The notes below the pieces were generated by a model. It was not told the DNA's origin, did no database searches, and saw only the letters and a program-made list of their open reading frames with translations. A stretch of DNA of 62,331 nt from Verrucomicrobiales bacterium (GTDB taxonomy: Bacteria; Verrucomicrobiota; Verrucomicrobiia; Verrucomicrobiales; SLCJ01). The translations under genes and the position numbers were made by a program. The stretch spans positions 1 through 62,331 of the forward strand of contig JBJTQJ010000010.1 in assembly GCA_046075565.1 (NCBI GenBank), read 5' to 3'. Position 1 is the stretch's first letter. Each line of letters opens with the position of its first letter. Of the stretch, positions 33,129 through 61,951 are shown one piece after another.

Positions 33129-35489
33129 ATGAAAAAGGCTCTCCTCGCCATGATCGCCACGATTTCGCTGTGTCCGCTCCATGCGGTCGAAGTCATCCAG
33201 TCCAACGACCAATTAAGCATCGCCAACCAGGCGCTCCTGCTGTCCTACGATTTAAAAGCCGGCACGTGGTCCGCCACCAACCTCTCGTCCGATACGGTGG
33301 TTTTCGCCAACGTCCGCTTCACCGTCGATGAAACCGGATGGCAGAAACCCGCTGGAGTCACCCGTTCCTGGACGCAATCGGAAGTGAAGGATGAATTCGG
33401 AAGCGGCCGCACCCTGACCATCACCGAGACGCCCAACGGTGGCTACGCGCCGATCAAATCGCTGCATCTGACGGTTTATGAGGGGCAGCCGTTTGCCGTG
33501 CTCGGATTCAGCGTGACCAATCAACGCGAGTTCCCCATGCGGGTTGCCCGCATCGGCGTAATCGACAAGGCCAAGTTCCTGCCGGGAAAAAAACTCGATA
33601 AACCACAGGTTTTGCGCGGCGGAGCCGGCGCACAAAAAAACCATGTCGAAAACACCTCCACCATCGACGCGCATAACAATCTGCTCGTGACCGGCAAAGT
33701 CGATGGAAGCCGCCAATCGATGGTGGCCGGAGGCCTGCGCTACCGTGAATTCCTCCGGCGGCTCGTGTTGGATGAAAAGAAGAACGAGTTGACCATCACC
33801 ATCGAGGATCCGTTTGGCAAGCTGGTCCCGCCCGGCACCACTTATGAAGCGGTGGATACGGTCTTTCTCGACATCACTACTGCCGATCCCTTTGCCTCGC
33901 TTGAAGCCTATGGACTGGCCATGCGCGCCGCCAACAAGGCCAATCCAAAGCCCTACGATTTCCCAACGCTCTGCGGCTGGCTCGTTTCCCAAGGATCCTA
34001 CGGTGAAGGCAAACCGATCAACGATTCGGCATCTCTGGTCGGGCAGATGGAACTCGCCGTAAAATCGGGATTGCTGAAATACACCCCGGTAGCCATCCGC
34101 CTCGAGCCGGACTTCTATTGCGACCAGAATTATGGTGACACCCAGCAAGGATGGTGGAACGACAAGATGTGGGCGAAATATGGAGCCCTCACCCCTCCCT
34201 ACGAAACCTTCGGGAAGTTCTGCGGCAAGATCCGCGAACTCGGCGGCATCCCGTTCACCTACATCCAGACCAACATGCCGTCGAACGACTTCGCACTCGC
34301 CCACCCCGGCTGGATGATGCGCAGCGACATCACCCGTCTGCATGCAGAACACCGCCACCACATGCCATGGGTAAAATACGACTTCACCCATCCGGAGTTC
34401 CAAGCCCACACCCTCGCCATGTGGAAAGGCCTCGCCAAAGACGGACTGCTGGGCATCAAGTTCGATTATCCGGAAAGCGGTTGGATCCCCACCGGGGGCT
34501 TCCATGATGAAAAGCACACCACCACCACCGCCTACCGCAAGGTTTTCGAAATCTGCCGCGAGGGACTCGGCCCCGATGCCTTCATCCACGAACGCAATCT
34601 TGGCGAATACGGCACCCCCATGCTCGATGTGACCGCGGGCATCATCGACCTCCAGCGTGTCTGGGACGACTCCTCCCACTTCGAACCCGAGATGGCCTCC
34701 CGCATGGGCCTGCGCTGGTATAAAAACCGCAGCGTTTTTGGCTACTATCCGGATGGCAAATCCTTTAAGGGCATGGACACGGACGCCCGTCGCACCATGC
34801 TCACGCTTGTCGGGCTGCTCTCGGGGCGTCTCGAACTCGGCACATCATTCGGACGCATGACCCCCGAGGAGCAACACGATCTCACCCGCATCTATCCCTT
34901 GCTCAAGGGCACCCGGTCGTTCCGCCCGGTGGACATGCTTTCCGCCGCGCCGGCCGAGCCATCGGTCTATGTCTATGCCAGCGACACCGATGCCGCCCAG
35001 ATCATTCTTGCCAACAATCACGACAAAGCAGGTGATGTCGGCACTGCCCTTTCCGGCGACCAGGCCGACACCGGTTCGCTCGGACTCGATGCCACCGCCA
35101 CTTACCATCTCCACGACTTCTGGAATGATGAATATCTCGGCGAATTCAAAGGCAACGGACAAATCTCCCGTCCGCTCAAGCCCTTGCAGTCGCTGGTTTA
35201 CTCATTGCGCCGCAAGCTCGACCATCCGCAGGCCATCTCCAGCAATCGCCACATCATGCAAGGACTGCTGGAGCCGACCGGATGGGACCCCGCCGCCCTC
35301 ACCCTGAGCGGCACCACCCGTGTCGTCGCTGGAGAACCCGTCGTCATCACTCTCGCCGGAAACGGCTACCAACCCGTAGCCCCGGAGAAACCAGGAATGA
35401 GCATCACCCGCGAAGGCGACATCGTGAAGCTCACTCTCACCAGCGAAACCACCACCGATGTCGCTTGGTCGCTTGTCTGGAAAAAATGA
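33129..35489 (+). CDS. Secreted glycoside hydrolase, clan GH-D (alpha-galactosidase-like)
   Basis: Signal peptide, PTLCGW, YDFTHPE, GIKFDY (KxD nucleophile), LQRVWDD (acid/base), C-terminal DFW beta-sandwich. Confidence 0.7.
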   Translation: MKKALLAMIATISLCPLHAVEVIQSNDQLSIANQALLLSYDLKAGTWSATNLSSDTVVFANVRFTVDETGWQKPAGVTRSWTQSEVKDEFGSGRTLTITETPNGGYAPIKSLHLTVYEGQPFAVLGFSVTNQREFPMRVARIGVIDKAKFLPGKKLDKPQVLRGGAGAQKNHVENTSTIDAHNNLLVTGKVDGSRQSMVAGGLRYREFLRRLVLDEKKNELTITIEDPFGKLVPPGTTYEAVDTVFLDITTADPFASLEAYGLAMRAANKANPKPYDFPTLCGWLVSQGSYGEGKPINDSASLVGQMELAVKSGLLKYTPVAIRLEPDFYCDQNYGDTQQGWWNDKMWAKYGALTPPYETFGKFCGKIRELGGIPFTYIQTNMPSNDFALAHPGWMMRSDITRLHAEHRHHMPWVKYDFTHPEFQAHTLAMWKGLAKDGLLGIKFDYPESGWIPTGGFHDEKHTTTTAYRKVFEICREGLGPDAFIHERNLGEYGTPMLDVTAGIIDLQRVWDDSSHFEPEMASRMGLRWYKNRSVFGYYPDGKSFKGMDTDARRTMLTLVGLLSGRLELGTSFGRMTPEEQHDLTRIYPLLKGTRSFRPVDMLSAAPAEPSVYVYASDTDAAQIILANNHDKAGDVGTALSGDQADTGSLGLDATATYHLHDFWNDEYLGEFKGNGQISRPLKPLQSLVYSLRRKLDHPQAISSNRHIMQGLLEPTGWDPAALTLSGTTRVVAGEPVVITLAGNGYQPVAPEKPGMSITREGDIVKLTLTSETTTDVAWSLVWKK

Positions 35490-36206: not shown

Positions 36207-36446
36207 TCACACGTTCGCCCGTGGGTTCCGTTCGCTGGGGCGTCCGCAATGCGGGCAAGTGGCGAAGTGGGACGACGAGCGGTCGATGAAGACATGTCCG
36301 CAGGCGCGGCACGCGACTTTTTCCATGGATTCGCGGTGGCGGATGCGGGCGGTGCGGCGAGTGGAGGCGATCCACGCAATGCCGATGATGGACAGCACAA
36401 CGGCCAGATAGATCAAAACGAGAGCAACGAGGGGAATTTTGATCAT
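36207..36446 (-). CDS. Small membrane-anchored zinc-ribbon protein
   Basis: N-terminal TM, Arg-rich linker, CRACG...CPHCG; ATGA overlap with the upstream gene. Confidence 0.78.
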   Translation of the reverse strand: MIKIPLVALVLIYLAVVLSIIGIAWIASTRRTARIRHRESMEKVACRACGHVFIDRSSSHFATCPHCGRPSERNPRANV

Positions 36447-37195
36447 GATTTTGGGCCGGGGGCAAACCGGAGGTTGAGCCAACGGACGGCACCGGGAGCG
36501 GGCCGGATTGATTCCGGGACAATGATATTGAGCAAATGCCGCCGCAGGGCCGCATCGGCGGCTCCGCCGGTCGAGCGGAGGGGCACCGCCTCGGCAACCT
36601 GTCCGCTATCGGTGACGCGGGCTTGCCAGAGCGATTCACCGGTCACGAGAGTTGGCTCGGGACAGGTCCATGGCATTTCGGTTTGTTCCCCGGTGGCGGG
36701 ATCTTCCCAGAGGGTTTGGCCATCACGCGCGGGCGAAGGCAATCCGGCCATGGGCAATTCTTCGGTTGGTGGAAGGGCGGCGGGCACTGCGTTGGGAAAG
36801 ACGAGGGGCTGGTTGAGGGAACGCGGAGGCAGGCGTTCGAAACCGGGTTGGTATCCATCGAAGGAAAGCCGCATCGGAACCAAGTCGATGGCGGGAGGGC
36901 CGTCGCGAAAGGGCACGGCCCCGGAGAAGGCCCCGAGCGCAGGTCCGTGGCGGGCGAGGTTGGCGAGCACGTCCGGATCATCGGCGCGCAGTTGCCAGAC
37001 CTCCGCGTCGCGCGGCAGTGATTTCTGGTTGGGCGGATAGACAACCCTGAAGAGATAAAACCCCGCGATGTGAAGCGCGAATGAGAGGAGCAAGAAGAAT
37101 CCGAGACGAAAGGACAATACATGCGGGCGCTTCCAGCGAAAGATCATCGGCACCGGTCGCCGGCGTTCATTTCTCCGTGCCAACCAGGTGATCAT
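36443..37195 (-). CDS. TonB/TolA-like energy transducer
   Basis: TM with SFALH (SxxxH), Pro-rich middle, C-terminal ARVTDSGQV...RSTGGAADAA resembling TonB_C. Confidence 0.65.
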   Translation of the reverse strand: MITWLARRNERRRPVPMIFRWKRPHVLSFRLGFFLLLSFALHIAGFYLFRVVYPPNQKSLPRDAEVWQLRADDPDVLANLARHGPALGAFSGAVPFRDGPPAIDLVPMRLSFDGYQPGFERLPPRSLNQPLVFPNAVPAALPPTEELPMAGLPSPARDGQTLWEDPATGEQTEMPWTCPEPTLVTGESLWQARVTDSGQVAEAVPLRSTGGAADAALRRHLLNIIVPESIRPAPGAVRWLNLRFAPGPKS

Positions 37196-37199
37196 AATC

Positions 37200-37628
37200 T
37201 CAGGGATTTTCGGCGGGTTGCGCGGCCTCCGCGACACGGAAGCCTTTGGCAAGGGCGAGGTTTTTCACCTTCATGGCCATTCCGTGGGAAGTGGTCTGAT
37301 CCATCTTCAACACGAGCGTGGAGACACGCCCGAGGCGATTCCGATCGGCCGCGGCGAGATCCTTGAGGTCGGTTTCGAGGCGGTCGAGATCGGTTTCCAA
37401 ATCATTGAGCAGTAATTTTGGCGGCGTGCCGGCGGAAACCACCAGCACATGAGCCTCGGCCAGCCCCTGGAGGGAAAACGAAGAGGGAGGGAGTTCGATC
37501 CGGACTCCGGATGGCGAAACCAACGATGAGCCTAACAAGAAGAACAACAACAAGGTCGCAAAGACATCCACGAGAGGCGCGACCAGCATCATCTCGCCAC
37601 GGAAATCGAGATGGGAGCGGAGTTTCAC
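37200..37628 (-). CDS. exbD: ExbD/TolR-family protein
   Basis: APLVDVFATLLLFFL (conserved TM Asp), IELP, LKMD. Confidence 0.88.
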   Translation of the reverse strand: MKLRSHLDFRGEMMLVAPLVDVFATLLLFFLLGSSLVSPSGVRIELPPSSFSLQGLAEAHVLVVSAGTPPKLLLNDLETDLDRLETDLKDLAAADRNRLGRVSTLVLKMDQTTSHGMAMKVKNLALAKGFRVAEAAQPAENP

Positions 37629-38290
37629 GAAGCCACCTCCTCATCGTCGGGTTTGGTCCGTGCGTCCATAATCAGATTCACGACTTCAATGCCGGCGCGC
37701 TCCATGTCGTGCATGAGCTGGCGGCAACGGGCGAGGGTGAAGTGATAGAGGATATACACCGGCACCCCGACAAAGAGTCCACCAGCGGTGGTGATGAGGC
37801 TCTGGTAAACCGAACGCGAGAGTTGCACCGGCGTGGCATAACCGGTGACCTCGCTCACCTGCACGAAGGCGTCGATAAGACCGAGGATGGTGCCGAGCAA
37901 TCCGAAAAGCGGCGTGCAGAGGGCGATGGTCGAGAGCACGGGCAGATGGAGTTCGAGGCGGCCGAGTTCGATTTGTCCGGATTCCTGGACGACATCGCGT
38001 AATTCGGCGCGGGGCAAATGCGGACGCTGGAGGGCGGATTGCACCACGCGGGCCACCGGTCCGGGGGCGGCCCGGCTTTCCCGGAGCGCTTCATCAAGGC
38101 GGCCCTGCCCGATGAGCCGGCCGATTCCCTGGAGCAATTCTCCCACATGTACGCTGGAACGGTGGTAAAAAAACAGCCGCTCGGCCGCCACGGCCATGGC
38201 GATGATGCTGCATCCGAGGAGCAGCCACATGATCTGGCCGCCTTTGTCAATCAGTTCGAACATGGTGATGGTGAGGTGACTCGGCCACAC
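37625..38290 (-). CDS. exbB: ExbB/TolQ/MotA-family proton channel
   Basis: GGQIMW..AER, PLFGLLGTILGLIDAF, LITTAGGL. Confidence 0.92.
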   Translation of the reverse strand: MWPSHLTITMFELIDKGGQIMWLLLGCSIIAMAVAAERLFFYHRSSVHVGELLQGIGRLIGQGRLDEALRESRAAPGPVARVVQSALQRPHLPRAELRDVVQESGQIELGRLELHLPVLSTIALCTPLFGLLGTILGLIDAFVQVSEVTGYATPVQLSRSVYQSLITTAGGLFVGVPVYILYHFTLARCRQLMHDMERAGIEVVNLIMDARTKPDDEEVAS

Positions 38291-38423
38291 TTTACCCGCG
38301 AAAGGGAAATTGAAACCACGGATTTCTCGGCCGGACCCGTATTTTTCGGCACTTGCATGGGGAGGGCGCGGCTCGGAAGAGGTGGAGAATCCATTTCCCG
38401 ACCGGCTGGCAGCGCGGTCGCGC

Positions 38424-38930
38424 TCATTTCAACGACGTCTCCTGCGAGGAGAATCGGCGGGCATCCTCACGGGTTTCCTGCTGGAATGGCACGGGGATTT
38501 TGGAAAGCGGAGGCAGGCGGGTATCCTCGTCGGCGAGGGCGGCCATGAGCCGGGGCAAGTGGCGGCGCACCGCGAAGGCGACCGCTCCCTCGGCATGAGC
38601 GCTGTCGTGCACGACGACGAGCCGGTGGCGGGCTCCGGCAGTGATGACCCCGCAACCGCCGCAGTGGGCGCGCTGCCAGAATTCGCCGGGCGAACCGAGG
38701 GCGGCGAGTCGCGAAACCTCGCGGGCGGCGACAAAGGCATTGATGGCGAGCACGGCGAGCGGTTCGGCGGTGGAAACTTCGATTTGGCCGGCATGGCGCA
38801 ATAACATGCCCGCTTCGTCGGCGAGCACGATGCCGCTGGCTCCGCTTTCGCGCACCATCTCCGCGAGCACCAGGCCGACGATGTTTTCACCGGACGGCGG
38901 GTTGAAGGTGGATTCCGGAGGCGTATTCAT
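38424..38930 (-). CDS. mglB: Roadblock/LC7 protein, MglB-like
   Basis: LAEMVRESGASGIVLADEAG..G..LAVLA...LVVV..GAV roadblock pattern; ATGA-coupled to mglA. Confidence 0.78.
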   Translation of the reverse strand: MNTPPESTFNPPSGENIVGLVLAEMVRESGASGIVLADEAGMLLRHAGQIEVSTAEPLAVLAINAFVAAREVSRLAALGSPGEFWQRAHCGGCGVITAGARHRLVVVHDSAHAEGAVAFAVRRHLPRLMAALADEDTRLPPLSKIPVPFQQETREDARRFSSQETSLK

Positions 38931-39535
38931 CGTCCGGGGACTTGGTTGGCGGAAAAGAACCGCTCGAGCACGGTCTGGGAAACAGAAGTGAGCGTGGAGA
39001 AAACATTCCATCCCGAGCCGGCCACGCACTCGACGGCCTGCAGTCGCCGCGATCCGCTGTTGAAGATGTTTTCGAGATCGGCCATGGCCATGGCCCCGGC
39101 TACGTCCCGTTTGTTATACTGCAGCACGAGCGGCACCTCCGCGGGATCCACTCCATTGTCGCGCAGGTTTGCCCAAGTCGTGCGCCATGCCGCCAGGTTG
39201 TCATCGAGGCGGGTGCGTTCGGAATCGATCACGAAGACAATACCATCCACGCCGCGCAGCACGATCTGTCTGGTGGCATTGAAGACCGCTTGACCGGGCA
39301 CGGTGTAAAGCTGGAACGAAACCCGGCAGCCCGCGACTTCCATCGCCTCGACGGGCATAAAGTCGAAAAAGAGCGTGCGGTCTGCCGCAGTGGCCAGCGA
39401 TATCAACTCACCCCGCCGGGATGGATCCAGACGCGAGTGGATATACGAAAGATTCGTGGTTTTGCCGGACCAACCGGCCCCGCAATAAACGATCTTGAAC
39501 CTGACTTCCCGGCTGGATGGATTGTATGCGGGCAT
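38927..39535 (-). CDS. mglA: MglA-family small GTPase
   Basis: KIVYCGAGWSGKTTN, DRTLFFDF, YTVPGQ, VLRGVDGIVFVIDS, QYNKRD. Confidence 0.95.
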   Translation of the reverse strand: MPAYNPSSREVRFKIVYCGAGWSGKTTNLSYIHSRLDPSRRGELISLATAADRTLFFDFMPVEAMEVAGCRVSFQLYTVPGQAVFNATRQIVLRGVDGIVFVIDSERTRLDDNLAAWRTTWANLRDNGVDPAEVPLVLQYNKRDVAGAMAMADLENIFNSGSRRLQAVECVAGSGWNVFSTLTSVSQTVLERFFSANQVPGR

Positions 39536-39564
39536 GGCGGGCGTGGGTCGGGGACCGGCGGGCC

Positions 39565-41562
39565 TCAGCCGCGCATGAGTTCCCGCAAGATGATGACGAG
39601 TCGTTCCCTCACGCCGTGGGCGAAGCGCCGGCCTTCGTGGAGCACGGCGAGACAAGCCTCGCCTTCGCTGAAGAATGCGAGCAATCCCCGATCGGTCTGG
39701 ATGGTCAGCGCACGGGCGTTGGAGATGCCGAGTTCACGGGCCATACGCGCGAGATGCGTGTAGGCAGCGGGCATGGTTTCAAGGCTCACGCCATCAGGCG
39801 CGTTGCCATACACGAGTTTGTCTCCAGCGAAATAACCCGCGGCTTTTACCCCTTGCAAACCGGTGGCAAGGCCGAAGACTCCTTCGGGTGGAAGAACGCC
39901 GGAGAGACCGAAGATCGTCCGTAGTTCGATTTGGCGGAAATCGATGGCGAAGTCGTCGTCACTCACCGCAGAGGCTGCCACGGGCTGGACCACGGGAGCG
40001 GGTGGAACGAAGGGTTTCGCTTCGACCGGGGCGGCGGCAACAGGCAACACCGGAGCGACCAGCTCGGGCACCGGAGCCAATGGAAGCGGTTCGGGTTCGG
40101 GCTCGGGTTGGGCCGGATTGACCATGGCGACAAATGGACTTGCCGGAGTTTCCAGCGGGGGAGCGGCGGGCTCGAAGTCTGTCGAGGTGATAGGTGCCAA
40201 AGGAGCCAGGGGCTCGGGCGAAGATTCTTTGACGATTGGTGCGGCGGGAATCTGGACGGGCGGAGCGATGTAGGCATCCTCGCGGGCGAGCACGGCGAAT
40301 GGCGTTTCGAAAACAGGGGCGGCGGGCGACGCGGGCGGGGCCGAAACCTCAATGGGGCCGGTCATCAGTTCGGTCGGCTCCGGCACGGACTCGTCCGGAA
40401 TCGGAGATAGAGCGGCTTCGGCTCCCAGATAAGGAATGACCAACTCGTGGTCGAGTTTGGCAGCGCCAAAAACCGAACGATAGGCCACGGGAAGAGATGA
40501 GACCACATCACGCAGGGCGACCATACCGGTCCCGGGGAATGCCCCCGCGCGAACCTTCGAAGCGGGCACTTTGCATTCGATGCCGCCGGGAAGTTGTTCG
40601 GCGGAGAAACCCAGGACATCGGCAGAAACCACCTTGAGCGAATCGGCGAGATCAAATTTGATTTCACCTCCACCTCCCGCCGGGGCCATTGGAGTGACGC
40701 GTTCGGTAGCGGGAACTTCCACCGGGTCGGCGGCCACGGGACGGAAGGGTGAAAAAACGGGAGGGACTTCGACCGGCTTCTCCACCGGACGCTGCGGCTC
40801 GGGCAAAAACCGACCCACCGGTTGACCGACTGCCGGGGCGGCAGGCCCGACGGGTTCAACAGGAGCCTCGGGCGCGGGCGCAGCGACCTCGAAGGGAGAA
40901 GCGAAGGCCGCAGTGGCCTCCGGTTCCGTAGAGGGCGTCAGCGTCTGGAAAGGCGATACGGCAGGCGCGGGAGTCGCCACTTGGAAGGGTGAAACCGGTG
41001 CATCGGCAGCGGGAGTAACCGCTTGGAAGGGAGAGGCCACAGACGGGGAAGCCGCTTGGAAGGGAGATGCGGCTTGAAATGGAGAGGCAGCCGCGGGAAC
41101 AGCCGCTTGGAATGGTGACGCTGCTTGGAATGGCGAAGCAACCGCTGCCGGGGTGGCAGGCGCCACCATGGCTTTCGGGGCGAAGGTCGCCGAAGGAGCG
41201 CCATCCTCCCCCAACAACGAACGGACCCGGGAAACTGGAAGACGCACTTCGAAGTCATCTTCGGGCGTCACGGCACGCGGGAAAATTTCAGGGCAGGCTT
41301 GGAAAATTTCCGAAAGCATAACGGCGGGCCGGCCTTCGGCAATCGTGCGTTTGGCCGTAGCCAAATTGAGCGAGACCGTGCGGTTCACATCGACTCCTTG
41401 CAACCGCACGAACTCCGGAGGCAGGAGGTTGGCCAGCTCCGAGACGGAACACGGCCGCGCCGTGGACGTCGGCAGGGAAGGAATCTGATCCTCGCGACTG
41501 GGAACTGGAGCGGGGACCGAAGGCTCGGGATTTCCGAAGAGTTTATTGAAGAATCCGGACAT
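39565..41562 (-). CDS. Large Pro/Ala-rich scaffold: amphipathic N-terminus, SPF repeats, C-terminal roadblock-like domain
   Basis: 665-aa ORF; MSGFFNKLFG; seven SPFQ motifs; C-terminal alpha-beta-beta-alpha-beta-beta-beta-alpha pattern. Confidence 0.75.
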   Translation of the reverse strand: MSGFFNKLFGNPEPSVPAPVPSREDQIPSLPTSTARPCSVSELANLLPPEFVRLQGVDVNRTVSLNLATAKRTIAEGRPAVMLSEIFQACPEIFPRAVTPEDDFEVRLPVSRVRSLLGEDGAPSATFAPKAMVAPATPAAVASPFQAASPFQAAVPAAASPFQAASPFQAASPSVASPFQAVTPAADAPVSPFQVATPAPAVSPFQTLTPSTEPEATAAFASPFEVAAPAPEAPVEPVGPAAPAVGQPVGRFLPEPQRPVEKPVEVPPVFSPFRPVAADPVEVPATERVTPMAPAGGGGEIKFDLADSLKVVSADVLGFSAEQLPGGIECKVPASKVRAGAFPGTGMVALRDVVSSLPVAYRSVFGAAKLDHELVIPYLGAEAALSPIPDESVPEPTELMTGPIEVSAPPASPAAPVFETPFAVLAREDAYIAPPVQIPAAPIVKESSPEPLAPLAPITSTDFEPAAPPLETPASPFVAMVNPAQPEPEPEPLPLAPVPELVAPVLPVAAAPVEAKPFVPPAPVVQPVAASAVSDDDFAIDFRQIELRTIFGLSGVLPPEGVFGLATGLQGVKAAGYFAGDKLVYGNAPDGVSLETMPAAYTHLARMARELGISNARALTIQTDRGLLAFFSEGEACLAVLHEGRRFAHGVRERLVIILRELMRG
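40945..41137 (-). repeat. Coding tandem repeat encoding seven SPFQ motifs
   Basis: Plus-strand (T/C)TGRAANGGNGA units near 40945, 40981, 41023, 41056, 41074, 41107 and 41125. Confidence 0.85.
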
Positions 41563-41684: not shown

Positions 41685-41759
41685 TGGTGCACGGGGAGGG
41701 GTTCGAACCCCCGACCAACTCGGTGTAAACGAGTCGCTCTACCGCTGAGCTACCCATGC
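41685..41759 (-). tRNA. tRNA-Val (anticodon TAC)
   Basis: Full cloverleaf: GCATGGG/CCCGTGC acceptor, GCTC/GAGC D-arm, ACTCG-TTTACAC-CGAGT anticodon arm, TTCGAAC T-loop, encoded CCA. Confidence 0.97.
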
Positions 41760-43632: not shown

Positions 43633-45003
43633 TCAATCGAGAGCCAGCTCGAGCAATTTCACGGCCTCGCTCGGCGAGGCCGGGGAAGCGAGCACGTTGG
43701 AGACGCCCGGCACATCCAACCAGCGGCGTCCCTCGCCTTCCGACATGGACAAGACGATGATCGGCATGGTGAGACCGAGGAAAATCGCATTCTCGTTGGG
43801 CACCACACCCGGGCCATCGACCAGGATGGCCGCGTCGAAGGGACGCTTCGCCGGAGCGCGGGAACCATAATGGGCGGCACGGGACACCGTGCTGACCGGC
43901 ACCGGCAACATGCCCTTGCGCCAGACCATCTGACAAAGGATCGGCGACTCGATGGCATCGGAAGCGACCACGAGCACACGGCGAAGGCGCGGAGTGGCTC
44001 GGCGCTCGCGCAGGACCGCGTCTTCCTTCACCGGAAACACGCATCTCCAGTCTCCCGACGGTGCCAATTCAAATCTTCCACCGGCGGCACTCATGCGCGC
44101 GGCCAGCGAAAGAAGGGCCTCGGCCAATTCCGGCACCCTATCCGGACCAGGCAGCCCGCGGCATTCCAATTCCAGTTGACGCCATGGTGCCACGGCGCGT
44201 TCGCGCGCAGAAATCACCACGGGATGCGAGGTGTTATCCGAGACCGCCACACGGCAAGCGAGAACAAGACCCTCGAGGGCCTTCTCCATCGGCCAACGAG
44301 CCATGGCGACATCTGGCATCACGTCGGGCAACTCGTCCACCCATGTCAGGCTGCCGTCCACGGCGGCCAAATCGAAAGCCGCTTCGATTGAAGACCAAAC
44401 GGAAGACGCACCGGGCGCCACGGGGGCAGGTCCCATACCGGTGGCGAGATTTTTCTGCAAATCCCCCATCCGGCGCACCGATTCGCGGGCTTCGTTCAGA
44501 TAATCACTGCCTGCGATCGCGCTCGGCTGCGCATCCACGAAGCGACGCAGGTTGTCCTCGATGTCGCTCAGGGCCTGACGCCCCGCCTGCAAATACCAGC
44601 GCCCGAGTGGCTCGCCGGTGGCTTCCGCCATCGGTGCGGCCGCCTCGGCCGAAAGTGGGTTCCTGGCCGCCGCTCCACTGGATTCCAGAGCACGTTCGAG
44701 AGCATTGGCATCCCATGGGTCACCCAGATTCTCGCCACCTTCGACAATACTGCGCGCTTGCACGCCCGGGGGCAAATCACGGCTGCCATCGGTCACCACC
44801 ACCTCGGCGCTCTCTCCCGCCACCGCATACTGATCCAAGGCCGACCAGCCAACCGCCCGCCAGAGGTAACCACGACCCTCAAGCATCGAGCCAACCCATG
44901 TCCTCCAGAGCGGACTTTCCGAAACCACCCACGCTTCAGCCAGAGGGCGCAGGGTTTCGGGTGCTGGGGAGAGAACGGGGTTTAGATTTGTTGAGGTATC
45001 CAT
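43633..45003 (-). CDS. Degenerate hybrid sensor-kinase-like protein (REC-HisKA-HATPase-REC architecture)
   Basis: Receiver-like N- and C-termini (VVVTD; RRVLVV..FDAAIL..PIIVLS..VLASP); HATPase-like MEKALEGLVLACRVA..VVISAR..AAGGRFEL..VFP. Confidence 0.6.
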   Translation of the reverse strand: MDTSTNLNPVLSPAPETLRPLAEAWVVSESPLWRTWVGSMLEGRGYLWRAVGWSALDQYAVAGESAEVVVTDGSRDLPPGVQARSIVEGGENLGDPWDANALERALESSGAAARNPLSAEAAAPMAEATGEPLGRWYLQAGRQALSDIEDNLRRFVDAQPSAIAGSDYLNEARESVRRMGDLQKNLATGMGPAPVAPGASSVWSSIEAAFDLAAVDGSLTWVDELPDVMPDVAMARWPMEKALEGLVLACRVAVSDNTSHPVVISARERAVAPWRQLELECRGLPGPDRVPELAEALLSLAARMSAAGGRFELAPSGDWRCVFPVKEDAVLRERRATPRLRRVLVVASDAIESPILCQMVWRKGMLPVPVSTVSRAAHYGSRAPAKRPFDAAILVDGPGVVPNENAIFLGLTMPIIVLSMSEGEGRRWLDVPGVSNVLASPASPSEAVKLLELALD

Positions 45004-45212
45004 AATTGCTAGGTTGCCTGACCGGGAAAATCTAAAAATTATACTGATATAAATCCAGATATTTCTAATTTTCATGGAAATTCGGCTACTTGGATAGCAA
45101 AGATTCCTTCAATTTTGCGAATCTGCCCAATGCTTTTGCGAGAATCGAGCAAGGTTTAGTTAAGAGTTCTAAAACAACTTGCCTGAGGGACAGACGTATG
45201 GCATTCGCCACC

Positions 45213-59747: not shown

Positions 59748-60191
59748 TCAGGGCTTCTTCAACACGCGGGCGGGCACCTCGCCGACAGGAATCCCCGCTT
59801 TGACGAGGGCGTCCCAGACGGCGATCAACTTCCCAAGGGGAACATTTTCATCAGGTTCGAGTTCAAAGGCTTCCGCAGGGTTGGCGTCTCGGCGAGCGCG
59901 CAGGGTTTCCACGAGTTCCTCGGGCGTGGCGACGGGAGTTCCATCAAAGAGAATCGACCCATCGGCGGTAAGAGCGATGCTGGCGCGCGGATCCTCGGCT
60001 GGTTGACCTTCCATCGCACTGACCCCAGGCAAGGCGATGTCGAGTCGACGTTCCTGATTGGGGCCCTTCTCTTCTTCCTCCTTGCGGAATTCGGAGGCGA
60101 CGATGAAGAAAAGCAGCAGGATGGTGAGAATGTCGATCAGACTCACCAGAGGAATAACAGGCCGGCTGCGTTTGCGGTCGATGAAGCGCAT
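59748..60191 (-). CDS. exbD: ExbD/TolR-family protein
   Basis: VSLIDILTILLLFFIV, IALP, PDENVPLG. Confidence 0.9.
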   Translation of the reverse strand: MRFIDRKRSRPVIPLVSLIDILTILLLFFIVASEFRKEEEEKGPNQERRLDIALPGVSAMEGQPAEDPRASIALTADGSILFDGTPVATPEELVETLRARRDANPAEAFELEPDENVPLGKLIAVWDALVKAGIPVGEVPARVLKKP

Positions 60192-60202
60192 GACGGAAAA
60201 AT

Positions 60203-60883
60203 TCAGTAACCGCGGGCGGCTTGGACAAGGCGACCGACGAGGCGATGCATGAGGACTTCCATCTCCACGGCCCCGCGTTCAATACTCGAGTTGAAAACGG
60301 AATGGGCGATGACACTGGGCACGGCAACGGCCAATCCGGCAATGGTGGTCGAGAGCGCCTTGCCGACACCGAGGGCGATGACCTTCATGTCGCGTTCCGC
60401 TCCCCCGATACCGCCGAAGACATCGACCAATCCTGCGGCCGTGCCGAGAAGCCCCAACAACGGCGCGATAGTGATGACGACGTCGAGCACGGAGAGACCC
60501 CATTGCATGTTTGTCACCTCGCGGCGGGCACGCGCCTCCACCGCTCCCTCGAGATCGGGCAGGTTGCCGGAAGCGCCATTGAGCGCCACCCGTGTCACTT
60601 TGCCAAGCGGGCTTTTCTCCGCCGGGCCGCGCAAGAGCACACGCACCCGTTCGATGGCGGAGGGATCATTTTCCAAACGTTCGAGTTCCCGCACCAGCGG
60701 AGCAGGAAACATCTGCGAGCGCCGCATCCAGAGAGCACGCAGCAGGATGACAAAAATGCTGACCCCTCCGCAGAGGAGGATGAGCCAGAGGAATGTGCCG
60801 CCTTCGATGACCCATGTGCGGAGGCGGTCGAGGATGGCGGAGGGAACGGGAGATGCCGCTTGAGCGAGGAAGTGGACGAACAT
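60203..60883 (-). CDS. exbB: ExbB/TolQ/MotA-family proton channel
   Basis: IAPLLGLLGT, ALSTTIAGLAVAVP. Confidence 0.92.
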   Translation of the reverse strand: MFVHFLAQAASPVPSAILDRLRTWVIEGGTFLWLILLCGGVSIFVILLRALWMRRSQMFPAPLVRELERLENDPSAIERVRVLLRGPAEKSPLGKVTRVALNGASGNLPDLEGAVEARARREVTNMQWGLSVLDVVITIAPLLGLLGTAAGLVDVFGGIGGAERDMKVIALGVGKALSTTIAGLAVAVPSVIAHSVFNSSIERGAVEMEVLMHRLVGRLVQAARGY

Positions 60884-60892
60884 TTGAATTTG

Positions 60893-61951
60893 TTAGAAGA
60901 AGAGAAAGTTGAAATTGATTTCGAGGTGACCGGCTTCGAGCATCTCGACGACCTCGGCAGGAATGGGCGGGAGCTTCGCGCCCTTGACAGCATTGAGGGT
61001 GAACCACAGACTGGCTTCACCGCCATCGCGGGCTTCCACCTTGCGGGCGGTGGTCACCCGCCCATCGGCAGAAATGGTGAAATTCACCCGCAGGAATCCC
61101 GGCGTGGCAACATCGCGGTGGCGGCGGCAGGCGCTTTGCCAGTCGCGTTCGATCATCCGCGAGACCGTCTTCAGGTAGCGACCGAGTGGCGTGTCCTCCA
61201 CTTCCAATGAGGCCTTGCCCCTCTGGCTGAGCGTGCCTTCGATGGCGCGCTGGATCTTTTCACTCTGGAATCCGGGAGTTCCACCCCCGCCACCGGGAGG
61301 GGGACGCAGCGGGACATTGTTGGCGACTTCGGGTTCGTCCGGTTTTTCCTCACGCGGCCGCAACAGTTCATCCGGCCGGGTAACCTCCATACGGGGCAGC
61401 GGAGTCGGCAATGGCAAAAGCTCTTCCGGCGGAGTTGCAACAACTTCTTTCGGTTGGGCCGCCTCGGCAGGCGGTGAGGGCGGGGTTGGCTCCGGAGGAA
61501 TAGGTTCCGGCGGACCGCTCGGCCCACTCGGCGCAGCGGAGGCGACTTCTTGCTCACCATCGGAAAACTTCTGGTTTGTTAGGTCCAAGCCGGGTGCATC
61601 GATACCATCCTGGGTTGGCATGGCCGGACCATCCTCACGGCGGGAAGGCAATTCGGATGCGGCCTTGGAATCCGCATCGGAAATCAAGTTCGTCGGACGG
61701 GTCGGCTTTTCCCGCAGGGCCCCGGCATCGACGAATTCAAAGCTCAACTTCGCGGGCACGGGAACTGGCAAGACCGGCATGAGGGTCGCCATCACCACGC
61801 GAGGCGGAGGCGAGGAATCCGTCGACGGCTTTTTCTCCGTGATGGATTGCTCCGGCGGGGCTTCAAGCCAATACGCGATCGCCAAAAGCAGCACGACCTC
61901 CACGAGGAGGGCGGCAAGGGCGGCGAACACGATTTGGGAGCGTCCGATCAT
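60893..61951 (-). CDS. TonB/TolA-like protein
   Basis: N-terminal TM, Pro/Glu-rich linker, C-terminal YLKTVSRMIERDW..VNFTISADGRV..LPPIP. Confidence 0.8.
   Translation of the reverse strand: MIGRSQIVFAALAALLVEVVLLLAIAYWLEAPPEQSITEKKPSTDSSPPPRVVMATLMPVLPVPVPAKLSFEFVDAGALREKPTRPTNLISDADSKAASELPSRREDGPAMPTQDGIDAPGLDLTNQKFSDGEQEVASAAPSGPSGPPEPIPPEPTPPSPPAEAAQPKEVVATPPEELLPLPTPLPRMEVTRPDELLRPREEKPDEPEVANNVPLRPPPGGGGGTPGFQSEKIQRAIEGTLSQRGKASLEVEDTPLGRYLKTVSRMIERDWQSACRRHRDVATPGFLRVNFTISADGRVTTARKVEARDGGEASLWFTLNAVKGAKLPPIPAEVVEMLEAGHLEINFNFLFF

Follow-up and report, generated by a model that had tools for sequence, protein, structure and literature searches.

The seven-gene cluster

The DNA studied here, referred to below as the window, is a stretch of 62,331 nucleotides (nt) of contig JBJTQJ010000010.1 (assembly GCA_046075565.1) from a member of the Verrucomicrobiales. 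Its positions 36207-41562 are occupied by seven consecutive co-oriented genes on the minus strand, which specify a scaffold protein, the Ras-like GTPase MglA, an MglB-like protein, ExbB, ExbD, a TonB/TolA-like protein and a small transmembrane (TM) zinc-ribbon protein (Table 1). A first, sequence-only reading of this DNA had treated the seven as a single system. Since the exb block is unlinked from the mgl genes in most relatives and is conserved where MglA is lacking, the seven genes are not one obligate system, and our preferred reading, to which we give a probability of about two in three, is that they are two separable modules, scaffold-mglA-mglB and exbB-exbD-TonB-like-zinc ribbon, in an ancestral and decaying adjacency.

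The run of seven genes and its three 4-nt overlaps, all listed in the first reading, were borne out by open reading frame (ORF) and sequence reading, and the identities given there to the genes are right. The overlaps read ATGA at mglA/mglB and at the junction of the TonB-like and zinc-ribbon genes, and GTGA at exbB/exbD. The remaining gaps within the modules measure 29 nt (scaffold gene to mglA) and 4 nt (exbD to the TonB-like gene). Between the modules lies a spacer that had been given as 133 nt without a clear terminator. Its length has to be corrected, since the alignment of ExbB orthologues starts at the ATG at 38263 and not at the GTG at 38290, which makes ExbB a protein of 212 amino acids (aa) and the spacer (38264-38423) about 160 nt long; the other half of the statement stands, a scan of the spacer having found no terminator-like and no sigma-70-like site. 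The fold of this segment equals that of shuffled controls (z 0.10). A terminator-like hairpin with a T-run does occur at 38172-38189, within the exbB coding region some 75 nt past its start; it is probably a chance match.

Table 1. Features of the cluster in the window, and the mini-scaffold genes of two relatives
Feature	Position	Strand	Remarks
Scaffold gene	39565-41562	-	665-aa ORF; no match in Pfam and NCBIfam scans
Scaffold N-domain	41209-41451	-	approximately residues 38-118; conserved, no known fold found
Scaffold SPF/Pro-rich repeat region	40867-41136	-	read from sequence
Scaffold C-terminal Roadblock/LC7 domain	39568-39930	-	by AlphaFold2 (AF2) model and Foldseek
mglA	38927-39535	-	202 aa; Ras-like GTPase with intrinsic Arg finger
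Divergent mglB-like Roadblock gene	38424-38930	-	168 aa; Pfam Robl_LC7 E 1.1e-6
Inter-module spacer mglB/exbB	38264-38423	-	no terminator-like or promoter-like site; unstructured
exbB/tolQ-like proton channel gene	37625-38263	-	212 aa from ATG at 38263; Pfam MotA_ExbB (PF01618) E 6e-22
exbD/tolR-like gene	37200-37628	-	142 aa; Pfam ExbD (PF02472) E 2.9e-13; TM-segment Asp (PLVDVFATLLLFF)
TonB/TolA-like gene	36443-37195	-	250 aa; no Pfam or NCBIfam match for this copy
Small membrane zinc-ribbon gene	36207-36446	-	79 aa; generic zinc-ribbon Pfam matches below cut-off
tRNA-Val(TAC)	41685-41759	-	ARAGORN; upstream boundary of cluster
Mini-scaffold	L103:249-1076 (G040), L105:8721-9596 (G012)		N-terminal MGFSFRSLY motif and Roadblock domain

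The switch module

MglA proteins of the group 1 type are recognised by a GxxxxGK[ST] P-loop, an Arg finger in switch I, a G3 "PGQ" without the usual Asp and a G4 NKxD, and by full-length likeness to characterised members. The protein encoded here has all of these: it carries GAGWSGKT, DRT (with the Arg finger at R53-T54), TVPGQ and NKRD, and phmmer aligned its residues 3-193 with Thermus thermophilus MglA (3t12, E 9.5e-51), followed by Myxococcus xanthus MglA (5.8e-49). Pfam and NCBIfam scans likewise returned matches of the MglA-type GTPase kind. The last three motifs had been picked out in the first reading, and the key positions are invariant across 32 orthologues (the P-loop, R53, T54, P80-G81-Q82 and N141-K142-R143-D144).

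The product of the adjoining gene is a Roadblock protein (Pfam Robl_LC7, 28.7 bits against a cut-off of 23) which misses the curated MglB equivalog by a wide measure (NCBIfam NF052242, 17.5 bits against a cut-off of 200). The pair thus resembles the MglA/MglB of T. thermophilus and M. xanthus (3t12, 6h5b, 6izw) in the Arg finger, PGQ and NKRD of the GTPase and in having a Roadblock gene alongside, and differs in that MglB is very divergent. The gene order in Myxococcus is mglB-mglA; here it is scaffold-mglA-mglB.

The scaffold protein consists of a short N-terminal motif, a conserved N-domain, a Pro-rich region with SPF repeats, and a C-terminal region which, on the model described next, is a Roadblock/LC7 domain and the second Roadblock of the cassette. 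The last 140 residues were modelled by AF2 with a pLDDT of 91.2 and the helix-strand order of the Roadblock fold, and a Foldseek search of PDB with this model gave 57 matches at E<=0.001, among them an Asgard Roadblock protein (2e-6), Ragulator and MglB (1.4e-4). Sequence profiles agree weakly (PDB 7f8f Robl_LC7 at E 0.03; Pfam Robl_LC7 in 3 of 19 members). The N-domain is conserved in a ten-sequence alignment and was modelled with a pLDDT of about 90; Foldseek against PDB gave no match at E<=0.001 and a wide VIA search reached a best Z of only 2.1, so that no fold was assigned. As in MglA/MglB/MglC, where MglC is a Roadblock paralogue within the switch, the system has a second Roadblock protein; unlike there, this Roadblock is fused to a Pro-rich scaffold of 665 aa whose N-domain has no recognised fold.

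The SPF motif, after which the scaffold had been named, occurs ten times in this copy. It is not a conserved feature of the family, since its count varies from 0 to 13 in the nine orthologues counted. At the DNA level there is a tandem repeat at 41021-41142 (period 51, 2.4 copies). A suspected internal duplication of the protein (residues 36-120 against 295-390) was rejected, BLASTP giving E 0.036 over 11 residues only.

Phyletic patterns were taken from 41 genomes of the order and 201 of the phylum, with ExbB orthologue cut-offs of E<=1e-44 and E<=1e-30, respectively. The scaffold-Roadblock profile finds one copy in 28 of the 41 order genomes, and in 26 of the 27 that bear MglA it lies immediately upstream of mglA. 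The scaffold-MglA-MglB triad is typical of Verrucomicrobiales and, with its second Roadblock fused to a long scaffold, constitutes an undescribed form of MglA cassette; in this genome the scaffold-Roadblock and MglB-like families are each present as a single copy. The triad is probably the polarity-switch cassette of the order, in which the MglB-like protein, alone or paired with the Roadblock domain of the scaffold, would act on the GTP state of MglA, and the scaffold would tether the switch to a cellular site. A 2014 survey of prokaryotic Ras-like GTPases places Verrucomicrobia under group 5 MglA only, and TolQ and ExbB go unmentioned in the available part of its text (PMC4316618).

The motor module

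The products of exbB and exbD belong to the MotA/ExbB and ExbD families (Table 1). That of exbB is closer to TolQ than to ExbB: its best NCBIfam match is tolQ (1e-16), and among solved relatives TolQ scores 4e-11 against 5e-5 for ExbB. The TonB/TolA-like protein has a basic N-terminal tail, one TM helix with His42, a Pro-rich, presumably periplasmic part and a putative TonB_C-like C-terminal domain. A profile of 26 orthologues of this arm matched TolA (0.018), TonB (0.025 and 0.031) and HasB (0.16) in PDB; Pfam TonB_C was found in five of the 26 and not in this copy. His42 is present in 17 of the 26, and W239 in 23.

The fourth protein of the module has a TM segment at about residues 4-26, then a basic stretch and CxxC-x14-CPxC; C46, C49, C64, P65 and C67 are invariant in 24 orthologues. 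Its profile matched generic zinc ribbons in PDB, the best being the membrane-proximal zinc ribbon of YebS (8e-6), and no GltJ or ZitP chain was among the best 60 PDB rows listed. A word-index search returned 11 close matches with uninformative names, and the corresponding Atlas clusters are labelled "hypothetical" and come mostly from Verrucomicrobiota, with one cluster from Lentisphaerota. The NER tail at the C terminus of the protein was considered as an MglA-linked feature and rejected, since the tail also occurs in genomes without MglA. This genome has one copy each of the TonB-like and zinc-ribbon families.

By homology, the TolQ-like ExbB and the ExbD would assemble in a 5:2 ratio into a proton-driven envelope motor. 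The TonB/TolA-like arm, with the usual His in its TM helix, would extend its C-terminal domain into the periplasm, and the 79-aa membrane protein is predicted from the positive-inside rule to present its zinc ribbon to the cytoplasm.

Distribution of the motor block

Within the order, MglA was found in 27 of 41 genomes and the ExbB orthologue in 40, including 13 of the 14 in which no match to MglA was seen. At the phylum level the orthologue occurs in 142 of 201 genomes, one per genome, and MglA in 12. A zinc-ribbon gene lies downstream of exbD in 17 of the 20 unlinked order-level loci fetched, and likewise in 17 of 20 class- or phylum-level loci. The motor block is thus a single-copy unit across the phylum, independent of MglA, and its core task needs no MglA. 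In seven genomes (G013, G033 and G026, loci L107-L109, and G007, G008, G017 and G025) the best zinc-ribbon match stands apart from exbB-exbD, either on a separate contig or at a distance of hundreds of kb, and not beside mglA.

In 12 of 20 loci outside the order (L134-L140, L142-L145, L149), exbB is preceded at a distance of 0-200 nt by an ORF of 830-960 aa. All six of these ORFs that were scanned are tetratricopeptide repeat (TPR) proteins, with N termini resembling signal peptides. Where the TPR ORF heads the block, the operon reads TPR-ExbB-ExbD-TonB-like-zinc ribbon. No Roadblock gene was found upstream of exbB in these 20 loci with two profiles at E<=1. The present genome gave only one weak tblastn match to the TPR protein, next to another of its ExbB paralogues, on C31. 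TPR-tolQ-like-tolR-like clusters that have vWA transducers were described from the Planctomycetes-Verrucomicrobia-Chlamydiae group in a 2025 study of force transducers (PMC12204202). The orthologous block outside Verrucomicrobiales resembles these in being headed by a large TPR protein and differs in having a TonB/TolA-like in place of a vWA transducer, one ExbD and not a pair, and a zinc-ribbon gene; neither "zinc" nor "GltJ" appears in the main text of that paper. Taken by itself, the motor operon points to a core envelope function in Verrucomicrobiota, Akkermansia-like genomes included, which is distinct from Tol-Pal.

The motor block compared with Ton and Tol-Pal systems

As in Ton and Tol-Pal systems, proteins of the MotA/ExbB and ExbD families are combined here with an arm that has a TM His and a C terminus whose profile weakly resembles the TonB/TolA type. 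Unlike in those systems, no receptor, TolB or Pal is encoded beside the block and a conserved zinc-ribbon gene is its fourth member. The first reading had remarked on this absence, and correctly so: a genome-wide search found no receptor barrel, TolB-like or OmpA/Pal-like gene on this contig; the receptor barrels are on C119 and C124, and the TolB-like and one OmpA/Pal-like gene on C108. The genome holds 11 MotA/ExbB genes and only 2 receptor barrels. A Tol-Pal-like set is located at C108:131.6-135.8 kb, beside another ExbB paralogue (TolB-like E 1.3e-68), and a receptor with TonB_C and ExbB at C119:77-80 kb. Because these sets exist separately, the motor block is neither of them; a Tol-Pal reading of the block was rejected, as the TolB- and Pal-like genes sit on C108 and none is beside it.

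There remains the view that the block is an ordinary TonB-ExbB-ExbD energiser of nutrient uptake that merely lies beside an unrelated GTPase operon, as might be argued from the Pfam matches of ExbB and ExbD, from the TonB_C-like C terminus in the orthologue profile and the TM His shared with TonB, and from the frequent location of tonB apart from its receptors (PMC12204202). Several findings make this very improbable. A TonB_C-ExbB set already stands beside a receptor on C119, the exbB product is nearer to TolQ than to ExbB, and the operon outside the order usually begins with the TPR protein described above. Moreover the block has an invariant zinc-ribbon subunit, which to our knowledge is no part of classical Ton systems. 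Lastly, genome G121 (0.9 Mb, 99% complete; locus L130, C1:539600-552300) keeps exbB-exbD-(short ORF)-zinc ribbon while having no receptor-barrel (PF00593) match, two MotA/ExbB genes only and a TolB-like gene elsewhere. Receptor-mediated uptake is accordingly an unlikely function of the block, and the original suspicion that this exb set is neither a standard nutrient-uptake TonB nor a Tol-Pal system has held.

Linkage of the two modules

The synteny of the seven genes across relatives gave a divided result. Of the order's 27 genomes with MglA, 6 (this one, G016, G010, G036, G032 and G030) have the exb block behind mglB on the same strand. The remaining 21 have the blocks unlinked: the distance is 27 kb in G028 and more than 0.6 Mb in the complete genomes G013 and G038, and elsewhere the blocks stand on different contigs. 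This speaks against the single seven-gene system first proposed. Eight further verrucomicrobial loci from metagenome-assembled genomes (MAGs) included three linked and four unlinked cases and one that was too short for a verdict. All 36 non-verrucomicrobial MglA loci lacked both exb block and scaffold. Among ten other MglA loci of the phylum the blocks are close in one, that of G085 (another order), where scaffold-mglA-mglB faces fabF-zinc ribbon-tonB-exbD-exbB, an arrangement that fits a single inversion of exbB..fabF.

Linked cases are scattered over the MglA tree, deep branches included, and the linked state requires at least 4-6 changes. We read this pattern as ancestral adjacency followed by repeated loss. 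Most simply, the adjacency is the ancestral gene order of Verrucomicrobiales and a sister order, and has decayed in about three quarters of the lineages. Unrelated fabF served as a control for synteny. This beta-ketoacyl-ACP synthase II gene, recognised from its sequence, comes immediately after the zinc-ribbon gene in 15 of 29 loci (L100, L101, L103, L105, L106, L112, L113, L118-L120, L032, L034, L049, L056 and L086); in this window the convergent GNAT gene takes its place. Synteny with an unrelated gene has thus been preserved no less well than the mgl-exb adjacency.

Comparison with the Agl-Glt machinery of Myxococcus

The first reading had drawn an analogy with the gliding motor of Myxococcus, and it is an apt one. 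In M. xanthus the TonB-like Agl-Glt protein GltJ binds MglA-GTP through its cytosolic linker, and its zinc ribbon binds MglB and raises the efficiency of this GTPase-activating protein (GAP) fourfold; outside Myxococcales the authors report no correlation between zinc ribbon-GYF proteins and MglA-MglB operons (PMC11135422). The cluster described here shares with Agl-Glt (AglRQS; GltG, GltJ) a proton motor of the TolQ/R-ExbB/D type, a TonB-like protein that crosses the membrane once and has a putative periplasmic domain of TonB_C type, a predicted cytoplasmic zinc ribbon at the membrane, and a group-1-type MglA whose gene adjoins that of a Roadblock partner. It differs in that the zinc ribbon is on a 79-aa protein of its own, C-terminal to the TM helix, with no linker or GYF domain; in that no Glt periplasmic or outer-membrane genes were seen beside the cluster; and in that the motor block occurs phylum-wide without MglA. 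No GYF domain is encoded anywhere in the cluster.

The parallel with AglRQS/GltJ makes a coupling of the two modules plausible. MglA-GTP, MglB and the Roadblock scaffold might dock on the zinc ribbon or on the N-terminal tail of the TonB-like protein and so switch or position the ExbBD motor, and the cluster would then represent, outside the myxobacteria, a minimal equivalent of AglRQS-GltJ as controlled by MglA/MglB. We hold such a coupled machine to be possible, and on present evidence doubtful. The GltJ precedent, with its binding of MglB by the zinc ribbon and of MglA-GTP by the linker (PMC11135422), argues for it, and the same parts are found here, each as a single copy in this genome. 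Yet lineages that lack MglA still conserve the motor block, zinc ribbon and NER tail included, and the modules are unlinked in the majority of MglA-bearing genomes. Where they are still linked, a spacer (83-180 nt in four linked relatives, from coordinates) always stands between them, whereas neighbouring genes within a module overlap or lie close together. The zinc ribbon is of a generic kind and, in the PDB rows mentioned above, shows no specific likeness to GltJ or ZitP, the position of the ribbon and the missing GYF domain depart from the GltJ plan, and the fabF synteny is no less well kept. A complex prediction for MglA, two MglB and residues 27-79 of the zinc-ribbon protein (own alignments) scored 0.19 against a mark of 0.32, without control runs, and is evidence neither way.

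The reading as two separable modules must in turn be weighed against several observations that count against it. In its parts list (TolQR-type motor, TonB-like arm, zinc ribbon, MglA/MglB) the cluster corresponds to the inner-membrane core of Agl-Glt. At least four families retain the same-strand adjacency, and another order has it in inverted form; expressed as counts, it is present in 6 of 27 order genomes, in 3 of the 7 MAG loci that can be judged and in one inverted case. In G012 and G040 (genus g11; 96% and 94% complete), where no MglA was found, exbB is preceded at 90-296 nt by a mini-scaffold of 276-292 aa. This retains the scaffold's N-terminal motif and matches the Roadblock profile at E 1e-17 and 1e-19, and the ratio of nonsynonymous to synonymous substitution (dN/dS) in its Roadblock domain, 0.19 with dS saturated, indicates purifying selection. 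Since the mini-scaffold has been kept beside exbB after the loss of mglA and mglB, the scaffold appears to have a role that is free of MglA and to have stayed at the motor operon, which can also be cited for the coupled machine. Furthermore the genomes include drafts, in which "not found" is not equal to absence, and the assignment of the arm's C-terminal domain to TonB_C is weak (E about 0.02, this copy being without a Pfam match).

A broader proposal, tentative and rather unlikely in our view, combines these points. The Roadblock scaffold, MglA and MglB would dock on the zinc ribbon or the TonB-like N-tail and thereby place or gate a receptor-independent TolQR-type motor; the assembly would be a minimal, independently assembled counterpart or precursor of Agl-Glt/GltJ, and the TPR-ExbB-ExbD-TonB-like-zinc ribbon operon an undescribed core envelope system of Verrucomicrobiota. 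If the coupling were true, the control of TolQR-type motors by small GTPases would not be a myxobacterial invention, and a far simpler system would be available in which to dissect it. We found no paper that describes the mgl-exb gene pairing, and ExbB, ExbD, TolQ, TonB and MglA are nowhere mentioned in the main text of the essential-genome paper on V. spinosum.

Flanking genes and other features

Beyond the tRNA-Val(TAC) gene lies a divergent chorismate synthase gene, and below the zinc-ribbon gene the convergent GNAT gene. Two flanking ORFs, 33129-35489 (786 aa, plus strand) and 43633-45075 (480 aa, minus strand), gave no Pfam match at E<=0.001. The sequencing runs listed as containing the stretch are four freshwater-metagenome runs of one study, all of DNA and none of RNA.

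A second tonB-exbBD set had been reported at 59.7-62 kb of the window. Its ExbB (60203-60883), one of the 11 MotA/ExbB genes of the genome, and an ExbD-like ORF (59748-60191) are indeed there. The label "tonB" could not be confirmed for the adjoining ORF of 352 aa (60893-61951), since this gave no Pfam match.

GYF domains bind Pro-rich motifs, and the GYF domain of GltJ binds AglZ. Three proteins with GYF_2 domains are encoded elsewhere in the genome (G000:C9:7726-7872, C117:14085-14225 and C14:44471-44614; loci L150-L152), and these three distant proteins are candidate ligands for the Pro-rich scaffold.

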